This document shows, piece by piece, positions 6,737 to 28,605 of a stretch of 39,178 bases of DNA (within the stretch, counting starts at the first letter, position 1; every line of letters starts with the position of its first letter). Source of the stretch: a virus. The notes beneath the pieces are model-generated. The model made no database searches. It was not told the origin of the DNA and saw only the letters and a program-made list of their open reading frames with translations. A program made the translations under genes and the position numbers. The stretch lies in UHGV virus genome UHGV-0034768. One strand, 5' to 3'.

Positions 6737-7141
6737 ATGCTACCATATCTCAACTCACGCGAAGGTCGCCACATGTGCGCTTGTCGCCTCTGGGAAGACG
6801 GGCAGTCTAACTTCAAGTCATTCGAGGACTTCAAGGCCCATACCTACCGTATGGCTGACGAGTTCGACGGTGAAGAGTACACAATCTATGATGTCTCAGG
6901 TCAACCAGTAGCGTATCTCTACATGCTGGCTACCGCATCTTGGCACCGACCGACTCCCGGTCTTGACCTTTCAATCGTCGCTATTCGTCGTGACTCGCAG
7001 TCCTCCCGCAAGGTTCTTGAGACTGTCAGACACATCATAGACGAAGAGTGCAAGCGTTGGGGTCTTGGCTGGTATTCTCGTGTCAAGCATGTTTCAGGGT
7101 CGGTAGACATCGTAACAACTAAGGAGATTAACCGTGGGTAA
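6737..7141 (+). CDS. gp7: gp7-like virion protein
   Basis: 134-aa ORF in the gene 7 position between 6.7 and 7.3; start codon uncertain. Confidence 0.65.
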   Translation: MLPYLNSREGRHMCACRLWEDGQSNFKSFEDFKAHTYRMADEFDGEEYTIYDVSGQPVAYLYMLATASWHRPTPGLDLSIVAIRRDSQSSRKVLETVRHIIDEECKRWGLGWYSRVKHVSGSVDIVTTKEINRG

Positions 7142-7382
7142 ATCAATCAGTAAGGCTTTCAAGAAAGTTGTGAACAGTGCGTTAGGGACCGTCGGTCTTG
7201 GCTCTAATGACGCGCCTAAGGTTGTTGAGGCTCAGACCCCAGCAGCACCAGTGGAAGTACCGAACGACAAAGTGGAGGATGTGGATACTGAAACAACAGC
7301 ATCTGACGAGAAGAAAGTGAAGCGTTCCGGTAAGCGTAGCCTTCAGGTCTCTCGAACCTCTGGTGGCGGTATTTCTATTTAA
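7134..7382 (+). CDS. gp7.3: gp7.3-like tail/host-range protein
   Basis: GTG start with AAGGAG 7 nt upstream; Lys-rich N-terminus MGKSISKAFKKV and C-terminal ...RSLQVSRTSGGGISI resembling T7 gp7.3 ...KSLSVARSSGGGINI. Confidence 0.8.
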   Translation: MGKSISKAFKKVVNSALGTVGLGSNDAPKVVEAQTPAAPVEVPNDKVEDVDTETTASDEKKVKRSGKRSLQVSRTSGGGISI

Positions 7383-7393
7383 GGAGGTGATGA

Positions 7394-8962
7394 ATGGCTG
7401 AACGTGAAGGCTTTGCTGCTGAAGGCGCGAAGGCAGTTTATGATAGGCTAAAGAACGGACGACAGCCTTACGAGACCCGCGCACAAAACTGCGCTGCCGT
7501 GACCATCCCCTCACTGTTTCCTAAGGAGTCCGACAACTCGTCTACTGAGTACACAACTCCGTGGCAAGCTGTAGGTGCTCGCTGCTTGAACAACTTGGCT
7601 GCAAAGCTGATGTTGGCGTTATTCCCTCAGTCACCTTGGATGCGACTGACAGTCTCCGAATATGAGGCCAAGACCTTGAGTCAGGACTCAGAGGCGGCTG
7701 CTCGTGTTGACGAAGGTCTGGCTATGGTAGAGCGTGTGTTGATGGCCTACATGGAGACTAACAGTTTCCGTGTCCCATTGTTCGAAGCTCTGAAGCAGCT
7801 TATCGTCTCCGGTAACTGTCTGCTCTACATCCCTCCTCCAGAACAAGGAACCTACAGTCCTATGCGAATGTACCGCTTAGTGTCCTACGTTGTTCAACGT
7901 GATGCTTTCGGTAACATCTTACAGATTGTGACTCTCGACAAGGTAGCGTTTAGTGCTCTACCGGAAGACGTGAAGTCTCAACTCAACGCAGAAGACTATG
8001 AGCCTGACACCGAGCTGGAAGTATATACGCACATCTACCGTCAGGACGACGAGTATCTGCGCTACGAGGAAGTGGAAGGCATTGAGGTAGCAGGGACCGA
8101 TGGTTCTTACCCACTGACTGCCTGTCCATACATCCCGGTGCGAATGGTTCGACTGGATGGTGAAGACTATGGTCGTTCTTACTGCGAGGAGTATCTTGGG
8201 GACCTGAACTCGCTGGAGACGATTACAGAAGCTATCACCAAAATGGCTAAGGTAGCCTCCAAGGTGGTGGGCCTCGTTAACCCGAACGGCATCACGCAAC
8301 CTCGTCGTCTGAACAAGGCGGCTACAGGTGAGTTCGTGGCTGGTCGAGTTGAGGACATCAACTTCCTGCAACTGACGAAAGGTCAGGACTTTACGATTGC
8401 CAAGTCGGTGGCTGACGCTATCGAGCAACGTTTAGGCTGGGCCTTCCTTCTTAATAGTGCTGTTCAGCGTAATGCCGAGCGAGTCACTGCTGAAGAGATT
8501 CGTTATGTTGCTGGCGAACTGGAGGCGACCTTAGGTGGCGTGTACTCAGTACAATCCCAAGAGCTTCAGTTGCCTATCGTCCGTGTGCTGATGAACCAAC
8601 TTCAGTCTGCTGGCATGATTCCTGACCTTCCGAAAGAAGCGGTAGAGCCTACGGTCTCCACTGGTCTGGAAGCTCTGGGCCGTGGTCAGGACTTGGAGAA
8701 GCTGACTCAGGCGGTTAACATGATGACTGGTCTTCAGCAGCTATCTCAGGACCCGGACATCAACTTGCCGACCCTTAAGCTGCGACTCCTGAACGCTCTG
8801 GGTATCGACACCGCTGGCCTACTCCTGACGCAAGACGAGAAGATTCAGCGCATGGCTGAGCAGTCGTCTCAACAGGCAGTTGTCCAAGGTGCTAGTGCTG
8901 CTGGTGCTAACATGGGTGCTGCTGTAGGTCAAGGAGCTGGTGAGGACATGGCTCAAGCCTAA
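7394..8962 (+). CDS. gp8: portal (head-tail connector) protein, T7 gp8-like
   Basis: 522 aa; long blocks match T7 gp8 (YETRAQNCA, PWQAVGAR, MYRL.SYVVQRDAFGN, RMVRLDGE.YGRSY). Confidence 0.95.
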   Translation: MAEREGFAAEGAKAVYDRLKNGRQPYETRAQNCAAVTIPSLFPKESDNSSTEYTTPWQAVGARCLNNLAAKLMLALFPQSPWMRLTVSEYEAKTLSQDSEAAARVDEGLAMVERVLMAYMETNSFRVPLFEALKQLIVSGNCLLYIPPPEQGTYSPMRMYRLVSYVVQRDAFGNILQIVTLDKVAFSALPEDVKSQLNAEDYEPDTELEVYTHIYRQDDEYLRYEEVEGIEVAGTDGSYPLTACPYIPVRMVRLDGEDYGRSYCEEYLGDLNSLETITEAITKMAKVASKVVGLVNPNGITQPRRLNKAATGEFVAGRVEDINFLQLTKGQDFTIAKSVADAIEQRLGWAFLLNSAVQRNAERVTAEEIRYVAGELEATLGGVYSVQSQELQLPIVRVLMNQLQSAGMIPDLPKEAVEPTVSTGLEALGRGQDLEKLTQAVNMMTGLQQLSQDPDINLPTLKLRLLNALGIDTAGLLLTQDEKIQRMAEQSSQQAVVQGASAAGANMGAAVGQGAGEDMAQA

Positions 8963-24278: not shown

Positions 24279-24375
24279 TCATCAGAAGGTTGTGGAGGTA
24301 GAGGCTAACTACACGCTGACCAACGTATGGTAACAACTTTGGGTCACGGACGACCCGCTTTAAACTGGAGGTTTT

Positions 24376-24570
24376 ATGATTGAGTTAGACTTCAAGAATG
24401 AGGTCCTTAAAGCCTCTCCTATCGTCGGGACCGCTGCGGCTGATGGTGCCAGTCGGTTCTTCTTTGGACTCACACTGAACGAATGGTTCTACGTTGCGGC
24501 TATCGCGTACACCGTTGTCCAAATTGGTGTGCTAGTCTACAAAACGATTAAAGGAGGTGGTAAAACATGA
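24376..24570 (+). CDS. gp17.5: class II holin (T7 gp17.5-like)
   Basis: 64 aa; near-identity to T7 holin over KA.PIVGT..AD...R.FFGL.LNEWFYVAAIAYTVVQIG. Confidence 0.9.
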   Translation: MIELDFKNEVLKASPIVGTAAADGASRFFFGLTLNEWFYVAAIAYTVVQIGVLVYKTIKGGGKT

Positions 24571-24830
24571 CGCAGATTGACTTAGAGAAGTTCCTCTTAA
24601 TGTTAGATACTGAACGTGCTCGACTCATGCTGCAAGACCTGCGGGATGACTCTAAGCGTTCACCTCAGCTTTACAACGCCATTGAGAAGCTACTGGCTCG
24701 TCACAACTTCGTGCTAAGCAAGGTGTCTGTTGACGAGAAGACGCTCGCTGATATGGAGGCCCTGAACGCAGAGTACGATAAGGTGCTCTCAGCTACGGAA
24801 GATAATGACACTGGATACGGAGTGCAGTAA
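24567..24830 (+). CDS. gp18: terminase small subunit (T7 gp18-like)
   Basis: 87 aa (T7 gp18 is 89 aa), RBS AAAGGAGG, ATGA overlap with holin stop. Confidence 0.85.
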   Translation: MTQIDLEKFLLMLDTERARLMLQDLRDDSKRSPQLYNAIEKLLARHNFVLSKVSVDEKTLADMEALNAEYDKVLSATEDNDTGYGVQ

Positions 24831-24940
24831 ATCTCTTAAGTGTTAGACTCAAGGTCCTTACTATATGTAGGGGCCTTTATGGTTAACACTAACTAGTGGA
24901 GGCGACTCTACGTGAAATCTGATAAACCGGGAGGGCAACT

Positions 24941-25405
24941 ATGCTCGAATTTTTAAAGAGAGCGGCTCCGTGGTTACTTGCAGCAGTGATGTTTGCTGGT
25001 GGCTACCACACCGCTAACAATAAGTGGGAGGCTAAGGTCAATGCAGAATACACCTCGAATCTTAAGGCATCGGAAGATACAAGGCTTGCTGTCCAAGCTG
25101 AAGTCAACAAAGTGTCCAAGCGGTTTCAGGACGAAATGTCCTCGCTGGAAGGCAGCACTGATAGGATTATTGCTGACCTTCAGTCTGACAATAAGCGGCT
25201 GCGCATCCGAGTCAAACCTACGAGTGGAACCACGCAAAGTGACGGTCGATGCGTCATTGATGGTTACGCCGAACTTGACGAACGAGATGCTAAACGTCTT
25301 ATCGCCATCGGATTAAAAGGAGACTCGTGGATTAAGGCCCTTCAAGATACTGTTCGTAAACTTCAACAAGACCGGGGTAGCTATGGGAATTATAATAACA
25401 ACTGA
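24941..25405 (+). CDS. gp18.5: i-spanin Rz (T7 gp18.5-like)
   Basis: 154 aa; N-terminal TM segment; matches T7 gp18.5 (MLEFL, LEGSTDRII.DL.SDNKRLR.RVK, RDAKR, ALQDT.R.LQ). Confidence 0.9.
   Translation: MLEFLKRAAPWLLAAVMFAGGYHTANNKWEAKVNAEYTSNLKASEDTRLAVQAEVNKVSKRFQDEMSSLEGSTDRIIADLQSDNKRLRIRVKPTSGTTQSDGRCVIDGYAELDERDAKRLIAIGLKGDSWIKALQDTVRKLQQDRGSYGNYNNN
25041..25316 (+). CDS. gp18.7: o-spanin Rz1 (T7 gp18.7-like), embedded in the +1 frame of Rz
   Basis: Embedded ORF with basic N-region, hydrophobic stretch ALIGLLLTFSLTISG and lipobox Cys (LTISGC); ATG at 25041 is 100 nt into Rz, as in T7; start not certain. Confidence 0.6.
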   Translation: MQNTPRILRHRKIQGLLSKLKSTKCPSGFRTKCPRWKAALIGLLLTFSLTISGCASESNLRVEPRKVTVDASLMVTPNLTNEMLNVLSPSD

Positions 25406-26168
25406 GACAGACGTGGTGTGGCACTACACTACAGGAGACCCTAGTGGTCGAAAGAACGCATCCGGGCATCTCCAAGAAGGTACTATAGAAGTTGTGGTTC
25501 CAGAGAATGCGCTGACAGCACGCCTGTACGTGACTGGAGGTCTGACGGTAAGCAAAGACTTCACGTCTACTTTCGGCTGGCCTATAACTGTAGGTGGAGT
25601 GACCGTGGAGAGACTCTGGGTCGATTCCGATGGCGAGACAGTCCTGAGTGTCTCATCTACCACTGGTAACGGTGTAGTAAAGATTGAGTACGACTGGGAG
25701 AAGACCAGACCTATTGACCACGCTGAATACACACTAGACGTCCGTAACTGGACAGGAACTAAGGAGTGTCCCGCTGGTGTGTTCACTGAGATTGTTAGTC
25801 TTCCGTGGGTAAAAGTCATAGATGCGAACGTAGTGTCAATCACAGGGTCTACCCTCAAGTTCCCGGCTATGGATGGTCTAAGCACATTGGTCTTCGCTGT
25901 GAGACTTACTGGTACGTATCCTACCCAATCCGAGCACACATGGTCTGTCATTATTCGAAGACCTACAGGTCAGGTACTATCAGTAGTACAGGAGGCTGAC
26001 AACAAGGTATCGTTCTCCACTCGTGAGACTACTATTCACAGCTACATTGCAGACATAGACGACCCGTTCGTGACCTCTGGTGTGGTGATTGGTGTGGAGA
26101 ATACCTCATCTCAGGCCCTGACTTTAACAGCCATAACGTTGCGTATAGAGCGCATATTTAACGTATAA
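25383..26168 (+). CDS. hypothetical 261-aa beta-rich protein inserted between the lysis cassette and terminase large subunit
   Basis: Long ORF with T/V/S/G-rich composition; overlaps the Rz end by 23 nt; no counterpart in T7 where gene 19 follows 18.5 directly; function unknown. Confidence 0.7.
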   Translation: MGIIITTETDVVWHYTTGDPSGRKNASGHLQEGTIEVVVPENALTARLYVTGGLTVSKDFTSTFGWPITVGGVTVERLWVDSDGETVLSVSSTTGNGVVKIEYDWEKTRPIDHAEYTLDVRNWTGTKECPAGVFTEIVSLPWVKVIDANVVSITGSTLKFPAMDGLSTLVFAVRLTGTYPTQSEHTWSVIIRRPTGQVLSVVQEADNKVSFSTRETTIHSYIADIDDPFVTSGVVIGVENTSSQALTLTAITLRIERIFNV

Positions 26169-26180
26169 GGAGGTGACGCA

Positions 26181-27944
26181 TTGAGTAAAGACTTAGTGGC
26201 GCGTCAGGCGCTAATGACTGCCCGTATGAAGGCAGACTTCGTGTTCTTCCTGTTCGTCCTGTGGAAAGCTCTGTCACTCCCAGTCCCGACTCGCTGTCAG
26301 ATTGACATGGCGAAGAAACTATCGGCTGGGGACAACAGGCGTTTCATCCTACAGGCGTTCCGTGGTATCGGGAAGTCCTTCATTACGTGTGCCTTCGTGG
26401 TATGGAAACTATGGAACAACCCAGACTTGAAGTTCATGATTGTGTCGGCCTCAAAGGAGCGAGCCGATGCTAACTCCATCTTCATCAAGCGCATCATCGA
26501 CCTCATGCCTCAGCTTCAGGAACTCAAACCTAAGCAGGGACAGCGAGATGCGGTTATCAGCTTCGACGTTGGACCAGCCAAGCCAGACCACTCACCCTCG
26601 GTTAAGTCCGTTGGTATCACTGGTCAGTTGACTGGTAGTCGTGCTGACATCCTGATTGCCGATGACGTGGAGGTTCCTAACAACTCTGCGACTCAGGCTG
26701 CGCGAGATCGACTTTCAGAGCTTGTGAAAGAGTTCGACGCTATCCTGAAGCCGGGAGGTACAATCATCTATCTGGGTACTCCTCAGAACGAGATGACCCT
26801 ATATCGTGAGCTGGAAGGCCGTGGGTACACCACTACTATCTGGCCAGCTCGTTATCCACGCGACAGGAAAGACTGGCAGTCTTACGGCGACCGTCTGGCA
26901 CCGATGCTTCAGGCAGAGCTAGAAGAGGACCCTGAGTCATTCTACTGGCGTCCTACCGATGAGGTACGATTCGATGATACGGACCTGAAGGAACGTGAGC
27001 TATCCTATGGTAAAGCTGGCTTCGCTCTACAGTTCATGCTTAACCCGAACCTGAGTGATGCTGAGAAGTACCCTCTGAAGCTCCGTGACCTTATCGTAGC
27101 AGACTTGGACCCAGCGTCCAGCCCAATGGTATACCAATGGTTGCCAAACCCTCAGAACAAGCGTGAGGACGTTCCTAACGTTGGACTCATGGGTGACTCA
27201 TACCACACGTATCAGACTGTAGGTTCTGCCTTCAGCTCATACACCCAGAAGATTCTGGTCATTGACCCTAGTGGTCGTGGTAAGGATGAAACTGGATATG
27301 CGGTACTGTATCAACTCAACGGCTACATCTTCGCTATGGAAGTTGGTGGTATGCGTGGAGGGTATGAAGACTCTACGCTGGAAGCATTGGCTAAGATTGG
27401 TCGTAAGTGGAAGGTCAACGAATACGTCATTGAGGGTAACTTCGGTGATGGTATGTACCTTGAGCTATTCAAGCCTGTAGCGGCCCGTATCCATCCTGCG
27501 GCTGTAACTGAAGTGAAGAGTAAGGGTCAGAAAGAACTCCGCATCTGTGACGTTCTGGAGCCTATCATGGGGTCTCACAGACTTATTGTTAACGCTGCTG
27601 CTATCGTCCAAGACTACCAGACAGCTGCCGACAAGGATGGTGTGCGTAACCCTATCTACTCTCTCTTCTACCAGATGACCCGTATCTCTCGTGAACGTGG
27701 AGCCTTGGCACACGATGACAGACTTGATGCGCTGGCTATAGGTGTACAGTTCTTCGTTGAGTCTATGGCTAAGGATGCCAACAAAGGTGAACGTGAAGTC
27801 ACTGAGGAGTGGCTTGAGGAACAGATGGAGAACCCACGGAAAGGCTTCGAGTCCATCCACACTGAGTTCTGGGACAATGGGGTCCGGGTAACTCACGATA
27901 CGGACGACGAGCTGGGACTAGGGTCATACGTTACGTTCCACTAG
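26181..27944 (+). CDS. gp19: terminase large subunit (T7 gp19-like)
   Basis: 587 aa; TTG start with AAGGAGGTGA RBS; blocks [68 protein letters not shown] match T7 gp19. Confidence 0.95.
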
Positions 27945-28038
27945 CTGAATGAATAACTATAGGTGAAAGCTGCATGAATACGCAGTTAGTACCCTATAGT
28001 TACTACCAGTATAACCTACTGTTTTACAAGGAGTTTGG

Positions 28039-28061
28039 ACTTAACTATCACTATAGGGAAG
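28039..28061 (+). promoter_or_regulatory. phage RNAP promoter (phiOR position), ACTTAACTATCACTATAGGGAAG
   Basis: Consensus match; +1 G at 28056; downstream of terminase near the genome right end, as T7 phiOR. Confidence 0.8.
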
Positions 28062-28241
28062 ACCCCAGGTTACTTATAGTATTACTGTAGTGAATATACA
28101 TATGCAGACTTTATGCAAGACCTTAGGAGGCAGACTCCGAGTTCTTACCTAAGGCTTGCACCGATGGAAGGAGGGTGATATTAATCATAATCCCTCCAAT
28201 ACAGATAGTCACCGACCATAGATACAGGAGGTATGTAGCAT

Positions 28242-28400
28242 ATGGCAAAGACCAAAGCTGTACTTAAAGCTCTGGCGACCAATCGAGCTACATACAGGTT
28301 TCTTGCTGCTGTTCTACTTGCTGCTGGCGTTACTGCTGGAAGTCAGTGGGTCGGGTGGGTCGAGACTCTCGTATGTTCTCTGGTGTCTCAGTGTAATTAA
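28242..28400 (+). CDS. small hydrophobic protein (positional analogue of T7 gene 19.5)
   Basis: 52-aa ORF not in the supplied track (under 60 aa); strong RBS ACAGGAGG 8 nt upstream; predicted TM-like segment. Confidence 0.5.
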   Translation: MAKTKAVLKALATNRATYRFLAAVLLAAGVTAGSQWVGWVETLVCSLVSQCN

Positions 28401-28559
28401 CGCAATCATGGTAACGATTCACGAGCGGAAGACCTAAGGTCAGTACGTGGATAAAGACTCACTCTACTGACCTTAGCTACTGTAGTCAAGGACTTTAGGT
28501 AACACCTTAAGAGAAGCTCACTTAGGGTCATCCTACTTATTGGTCTATCCTAGTGTCGC

Positions 28560-28605
28560 CTGACCTACGGTCCTTGACCTACAGTGGCTGTGGCCTACAG
28601 TAGTG
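28560..28605. repeat. short direct repeats (GACCTACGG / CCTACAGT x3) to the right of the putative terminal repeat
   Basis: Read directly; analogous to the T7 CCTAAAG-type repeat arrays flanking the terminal repeat. Confidence 0.6.

Follow-up and report, generated by a model that had tools for sequence, protein, structure and literature searches.

Both start codons described here are already on record in phage K1F: entry AM084414/NC_007636 annotates TTG as the start of gene 19, which encodes the terminase large subunit (gp19), and GTG as that of gene 7.3. The start codons are therefore not new. The two K1F reference records conflict over gene 19, with NC_007636 using the TTG and NC_007456 an in-frame ATG that forms codon 12 of the TTG-initiated gene (ATG-12). 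For phage SH3, a published table gives 'TCAGGCGCTtATG' as the Shine–Dalgarno (SD) sequence plus start of a 577-aa gp19, with a best match of 587 aa (PMC4925675). In Escherichia coli, UUG and GUG are the start codons of approximately 3 and 14 % of genes, respectively, and initiate at roughly 10–100 % of the level of AUG with methionine still inserted (bioRxiv 10.1101/063800). In the literature searched, we found no N-terminal peptide, toeprint or start-site ribosome profiling data for any kayfunavirus, nor proteomic data on a kayfunavirus terminase.

The window, by which we mean the whole 39,178-bp stretch of DNA analysed here, represents the complete genome, in circularly permuted form, of a podovirus that is K1F-like and belongs to the genus Kayfunavirus (Studiervirinae). 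Its start contexts are identical to those of K1F (NC_007636) for both gene 19 (...aaggaggtgacgca TTG agtaaagac) and gene 7.3 (taaggagattaa(t/c)c GTG ggtaaatca). Compared with T7/T3-type gp19 (PDB 8dgc, 4bij), the window protein is alike in N-terminal length and aligns over nearly its full length from residue 1, with a motif of K and 14 further residues situated approximately 16 residues past the start in both. The sampled T7-like gp19 homologues start with ATG, whereas the K1F-like clade starts with TTG. Protein 7.3 of T7 (PDB 9jyz; PF11653) and the window gp7.3 share a Lys-rich N-terminus beginning M-G-K and a C-terminal ...KxSLxVxRxSGGGIxI, but differ in length (99 aa in T7, 82 aa in the window) and in start codon, which is ATG in T7 and GTG in the window, where the gene has no internal Met codon at all.

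Genomic context and identity of the terminase gene

All large ORFs run in the + orientation and follow the gene order of T7. The terminase region displayed 96 % identity to those of Providencia phage EPr2 and of dozens of kayfunaviruses from Escherichia, Salmonella and Citrobacter. GenBank entry MT350292.1, titled 'Enterococcus phage EFA-1' (stated host Enterococcus faecalis), also matched this enterobacterial Kayfunavirus terminase region at 96.6 % identity, and its host attribution looks doubtful.

The gp19 gene (26181..27944, +) encodes 587 aa. Its product matched PF22530, the T7 terminase RNaseH-like domain (E 6.2e-38; 129.8 bits against a cut-off of 27), PF03237 (Terminase_6N) for the N-terminal ATPase domain (24.1 bits; cut-off 22), and PHROG 38 'terminase large subunit' (E 8.6e-132). 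Against the solved T7-like terminase PDB 8dgc (586 aa), residues 1–579 aligned to residues 1–579 (E 1.6e-247). The gene closes the late region on its right side, in the order holin, gene 18, Rz, extra gene, gene 19, which is the annotated order in K1F, SH3 and CLB_P1 except for the extra gene. Both domain content and synteny place gp19 among the T7-type terminase large subunits.

A scan of starts across all + strand ORFs showed that the remaining large conserved ORFs begin with ATG and have a recognizable SD, leaving the TTG of gp19 and the GTG of gp7.3 as the sole well-supported non-ATG starts among conserved genes. A promoter and terminator scan of 24300–28600 returned nothing that exceeded shuffle expectation.

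Anatomy of the gene 19 start

The initiation codon TTG (26181..26183, +) follows the SD TAAGGAGGTGA (26166..26176, +), the first three bases of which are the TAA of the upstream gene; viewed without the first of these bases, AAGGAGGTGA occupies 26167–26176 and is followed by the 4-nt spacer cgca and then the TTG. The in-frame TAA at 26166–26168 closes the gp19 frame. Reading can begin no earlier than 26169, four codons ahead of the TTG, and the TTG is therefore the first possible gp19 start. Later in-frame candidates are GTG 26196, ATG 26214 (codon 12; 26214..26216, +) and ATG 26226 (codon 16).

Anti-SD duplex energies, computed for each candidate start of each + strand ORF, separated these candidates clearly. 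The TTG scored −13.5 kcal/mol, the best value among all start candidates in the genome (portal gene, −13.4 kcal/mol), against −2.2 for GTG 26196, −2.5 for ATG 26214 and +0.7 kcal/mol for ATG 26226; by this measure, neither ATG-12 nor ATG-16 is preceded by an SD. The 10-mer AAGGAGGTGA occurs exactly twice in the 39 kb, at 7381–7390 before the portal gene and at 26167–26176 before gp19. Near-cognate, SD-directed initiation was taken to need a UUG or GUG 4–9 nt 3' of a stretch complementary to the 3' end of 16S rRNA, and both sites display this spacing, with TAAGGAGGTGA plus 4 nt plus TTG in gene 19 and TAAGGAG plus 7 nt plus GTG in gene 7.3.

We also looked for RNA structure that might sequester or present the gp19 start, and this candidate was rejected: the fold of 26131–26240 gave z = −1.2, with 22 of 200 shuffled sequences folding equally well. 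An 8-bp hairpin, CAUUGAGU-AAAG-ACUUAGUG (26179–26198, +; two G-U pairs), includes the TTG. It was rejected as a conserved element, being weakened or broken without compensation in two related loci (L021 and L022).

Comparative evidence for the gene 19 start

Alignment of the gp19 start regions of 83 related loci (numbered with the prefix L) supported the same codon. Throughout the K1F-like clade, a TTG with a strong SD occurs at the same position, and the SD is kept in relatives regardless of which gene lies upstream. Many other Studiervirinae, as well as L004, L005, L010 and L020, have an ATG at the aligned start, and L015 and L024 have a GTG. ATG-starting N-termini include MSKDALN... (L010), MSQALRN... 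(L020), MSKQSQE... (L019) and MSKPRNG... (L014); elsewhere in Studiervirinae the protein begins MSK, MSQ or MTK, with residues 2–3 (S/T/N then K/Q) conserved. The distance from the start to an invariant motif of DFV plus 10 residues is similar across gp19 homologues. The preliminary description had proposed TTG 26181, following a strong SD, as the terminase start, and the duplex energy, the aligned ATG-starting orthologues and the residue 1-to-1 match to PDB 8dgc all bear this out.

The segment between the TTG and ATG-12 varies as coding sequence does. Within the genus, synonymous changes were found at L5 (tta/cta), V6 (gtg/gta) and L11 (cta/ctt), the Arg8 codon is CGT in the window and AGA in L022, L004 and L005, replacements are conservative (K3Q, V6A), and neither a stop nor a frameshift was seen in codons 2–11. 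This pattern indicates that the stretch 5' of ATG-12 is translated in the gp19 frame.

These observations bear directly on the alternative that ATG 26214 is the true start, yielding a 576-aa protein with the TTG and its SD being fortuitous. ATG-12 has been chosen by annotators repeatedly. We sampled 14 phage genomes, a total in which the two K1F records count separately, and found gp19 annotated at ATG-12 in five: K1F (NC_007456/DQ111067), SH3 (in both RefSeq and the paper table), EPr2, IMM-002 and PE3-1. It is also the exact beginning of one 1731-nt GenBank CDS record. The other nine sampled genomes use the TTG (K1F NC_007636, CLB_P1, P762, LET1, Vec13, LM33_P1, Bas105, CHX131 and ST37). Against ATG-12 stand the lack of an SD, the published 'SD' being TCAGGCGCT; the conservation of residues 2–11 as protein, including the synonymous Arg codon swap; the ATG-starting homologues and the sequence of the solved structure, which begin at the TTG position; and relatives such as L014 and L016 that have no ATG near codon 12. 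Furthermore, in a collection of 15 billion proteins the 576-aa form was absent, whilst the exact 587-aa form was found on 12 public contigs. We consider initiation at ATG-12 as the main start highly improbable, and the annotation of gp19 at this codon in the five GenBank genomes is, judged from these sequence comparisons, probably wrong, cutting the terminase by 11 residues. Besides K1F NC_007456, records NC_031123, NC_048071, NC_024379 and OM256482 were noted for annotation at ATG-12.

A related alternative is dual initiation, whereby the TTG would be used mainly and ATG-12 or ATG-16 would produce a minor, shorter gp19 isoform. Two in-frame ATGs do occur no more than 45 nt from the gp19 start, internal starts are used in T7-family genes such as 4A/4B, and the internal start is annotated in K1F. 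Both ATGs nonetheless lack an SD and are not kept outside the K1F-like clade (missing in L010, L014, L016 and L020), and the local RNA fold, with the z-score given above, is not unusual; a second isoform of this kind appears very unlikely.

Three kayfunaviruses had a different gene 19 5' end. In L004 and L005 (IMG/VR 3300045988_000036 and _000061) and in phiYIO1-1 (L087), this end and the region upstream have been replaced by recombination, the N-terminal 13–20 residues of gp19 differ, and an ATG is found at the position equivalent to the TTG. In phiYIO1-1, a putative homing endonuclease is encoded directly upstream of gene 19.

Taken together with the gene 7.3 data presented below, TTG 26181 and GTG 7134 are very probably the functional starts, and the most likely explanation of both cases is that this K1F-like phage uses near-cognate start codons in ordinary SD-directed initiation. 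The 30S subunit would pair with the long SD TAAGGAGGTGA and set fMet-tRNA on UUG 26181, giving the 587-aa terminase, and TAAGGAG would likewise position it on GUG 7134 to give the 82-aa gp7.3. The mechanism would be that of GUG and UUG initiation in E. coli genes, operating here in an enterobacterial phage, with no difference in kind.

Upstream genes and stop–start arrangement

In kayfunaviruses without an insertion upstream of gene 19, the Rz (18.5) spanin gene and gene 19 adjoin, and most relatives have the two overlapping by 4 nt. The Rz stop TGA overlaps the gp19 TTG as a 4-nt TTGA in K1F, SH3, LET1, Vec13, LM33_P1, CHX131 and ST37 (for example, L084:615–618 and L002:1517–1520), and the gene 19 SD falls within the last six Rz codons. 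This overlap is a classic stop–start coupling layout. The window differs from K1F in that a gene of 261 aa (25383..26168, +) sits between Rz (24941..25405) and gene 19, and the TTGA overlap has been lost as a result of this insertion. The TAA of the inserted gene (26166–26168) supplies the first three bases of the SD and lies 12 nt before the TTG, in the same frame. An upstream stop lies near both non-ATG starts, 12 nt before the TTG in gene 19 and within an 8-nt gene overlap in gene 7.3. For most relatives, homology at the DNA level sets in at 26165–26167, beside the TAA that opens the gene 19 SD.

Among kayfunaviruses, the 261-aa accessory gene was found only in EPr2 (94.6 % aa identity), CLB_P1 (47.7 %) and P762 (45.2 %), and the CLB_P1 homologue is annotated as a 'putative protease', 18.8. 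The protein had no match in Pfam, NCBIfam or PADLOC, and matched PHROG 17779, which is of unknown function. Its C-terminal ~145 aa displayed weak similarity to proteins of N4-like/G7C-like coliphages, Salmonella phages and Aeromonas phages, which are labelled variously as 'tail needle knob', 'protease' and 'collagen-like'.

The shared frame raises the further alternative that readthrough of the TAA at 26166–26168 fuses the 261-aa protein to the terminase. In the window, as in EPr2 and P762, just this TAA and four sense codons separate the two ORFs, but in CLB_P1 the homologous gene is out of frame with gp19, and in most kayfunaviruses the gene is missing altogether. No signal supporting readthrough was seen at this TAA. 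A TAA with G as the next base is not known to be leaky. The frame relation not being conserved in CLB_P1, a readthrough fusion was rejected and is regarded as vanishingly unlikely.

Distribution of the gene 19 TTG and the question of selection

The extent of TTG usage was assessed with pattern scans and sequence queries. An IMG/VR pattern scan that allowed any base at the first start-codon position matched 12 kayfunavirus contigs, all of them with TTG, and a looser version applied to metagenomes found three further terminase starts, again all TTG. An 89-nt query beginning at the gp19 start codon matched 135 GenBank phage records at 93–100 % identity. Among 60 of these rows sampled down the ranking, 58 alignments started at base 1 and the other two were truncated records, one of them the 1731-nt CDS that begins at ATG-12. 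When the query was substituted with ATG or GTG, base 1 was never aligned in GenBank phages. The pattern and substituted-query results together indicate that the TTG is effectively invariant in the K1F-like context (~130 GenBank records and 15 contigs).

Invariance of this kind could reflect selection on the TTG as a throttle, which would keep the terminase low or express it only when coupled to the upstream lysis gene, with the strong SD compensating just enough. Several features are in keeping with such a role. A single T-to-A change would give ATG, and would leave the Rz protein unaltered in genomes whose last Rz codon is CCT, yet the TTG is invariant; its SD is the strongest that the genome contains; the Rz TGA overlaps it in the seven phages listed above; and non-ATG terminase starts with a strong SD recur in other T7-like lineages (L015, L024, L039/L044/L058 and L041). 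However, the genomes compared are close (93–100 % identity over 89 nt). In the 4-nt spacer, we counted about five minimal changes over four sites, corresponding to ~0.8 changes expected at a neutral start-codon base. With less than one change expected in such close genomes, the invariance of the TTG is not statistically informative and is not by itself evidence of selection. The kayfunaviruses with a recombinant 5' end (L004, L005 and phiYIO1-1) use ATG, indicating that the weak codon is not required, and the Rz overlap has been lost in the window through the inserted gene. The portal gene, used as a control, also has occasional GTG starts. On balance, a selected throttle is a tentative possibility. 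That it has been selected across the K1F-like clade, tying the terminase to late lysis-gene translation, with the non-ATG starts of other lineages being convergent, is rather doubtful.

Two related candidates were set aside. Selection on the TTG is not put forward on the basis of the substituted queries and pattern scans, in which the codon was invariant but divergence was too low for significance. An enrichment of non-ATG starts in terminase relative to portal genes of T7-like contigs is not claimed either, given that portal genes also have GTG starts; the automatic start picker used in that comparison was unreliable for SD-poor marine phages.

Ordinary SD-directed initiation, the preferred reading, may still have consequences for expression. 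It is plausible, in line with the expression tuning that the preliminary description raised as a possibility, that the weak codon, offset by the unusually strong SD and the proximity of the upstream stop, would hold expression at a moderate level, coupled in part to translation of the gene upstream.

The gene 7.3 start

The gp7.3 gene (7134..7382, +) encodes an 82-aa member of the T7 virion assembly/host-range protein family. Its product matched PF11653 'T7 virion assembly protein' (E 1.8e-9; 38.5 bits, cut-off 25), PHROG 1320 across residues 1–82 (E 1.6e-24) and PDB 9jyz 'Protein 7.3' (E 2.3e-8). Its coding sequence stops 11 nt short of the ATG of portal gene 8 at 7394, and family and position both agree with its assignment as gene 7.3.

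The ORF is open from 7116 and contains six in-frame candidate starts, every one of them GTG, with no in-frame ATG anywhere. The initiation codon GTG (7134..7136, +) is preceded by the SD TAAGGAG (7120..7126, +; duplex −9.1 kcal/mol) at a 7-nt spacing. The gene upstream (6737..7141, +; 134 aa) ends with a TAA (7139–7141) within the first gp7.3 codons, 3 nt past the end of the GTG, and thereby overlaps gp7.3 by 8 nt (GTGGGTAA). In 23 IMG/VR kayfunavirus contigs, in which AAGGAGATTAA is conserved, the start-site codon was GTG in 21, ATG in one and TTG in one, with the context otherwise identical. These are all recognized bacterial starts, and their interchange is the pattern expected of an initiation codon. 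In phages outside the genus, ATG stands at the aligned position and the protein begins MGK, MGW or MGF. The GTG start that the preliminary description assigned to gp7.3 is supported by the SD 7 nt upstream, the lack of an in-frame ATG and the GTG/ATG/TTG exchange in relatives.

Some public gp7.3 entries (P0003, P0005, P0007 and P0008 of the protein cluster) are 122–140 aa in length rather than 82, with ZG49 (128 aa), CY1 (140 aa) and Vb_SalP_792 (134 aa) as examples. The extra length looks like the product of longest-ORF calling that ran upstream into the preceding gene in genomes where the frame is open longer.

Implications

The value of these observations is mainly practical and lies in the correction of mis-annotated records, the finding being otherwise ordinary. 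That the starts would matter for accurate annotation had been anticipated, and the five of 14 sampled GenBank genomes with gp19 at ATG-12 confirm it: approximately one-third of the sampled kayfunavirus records shorten the terminase, including one K1F reference and the RefSeq entries of SH3, IMM-002 and PE3-1. Tuning of terminase dosage by a weak codon, if true, would be modest in scope and unsurprising to a specialist. Having the right starts matters when expression constructs are designed, when the terminase N-terminus is studied structurally and when phages of this therapeutically used genus are engineered.
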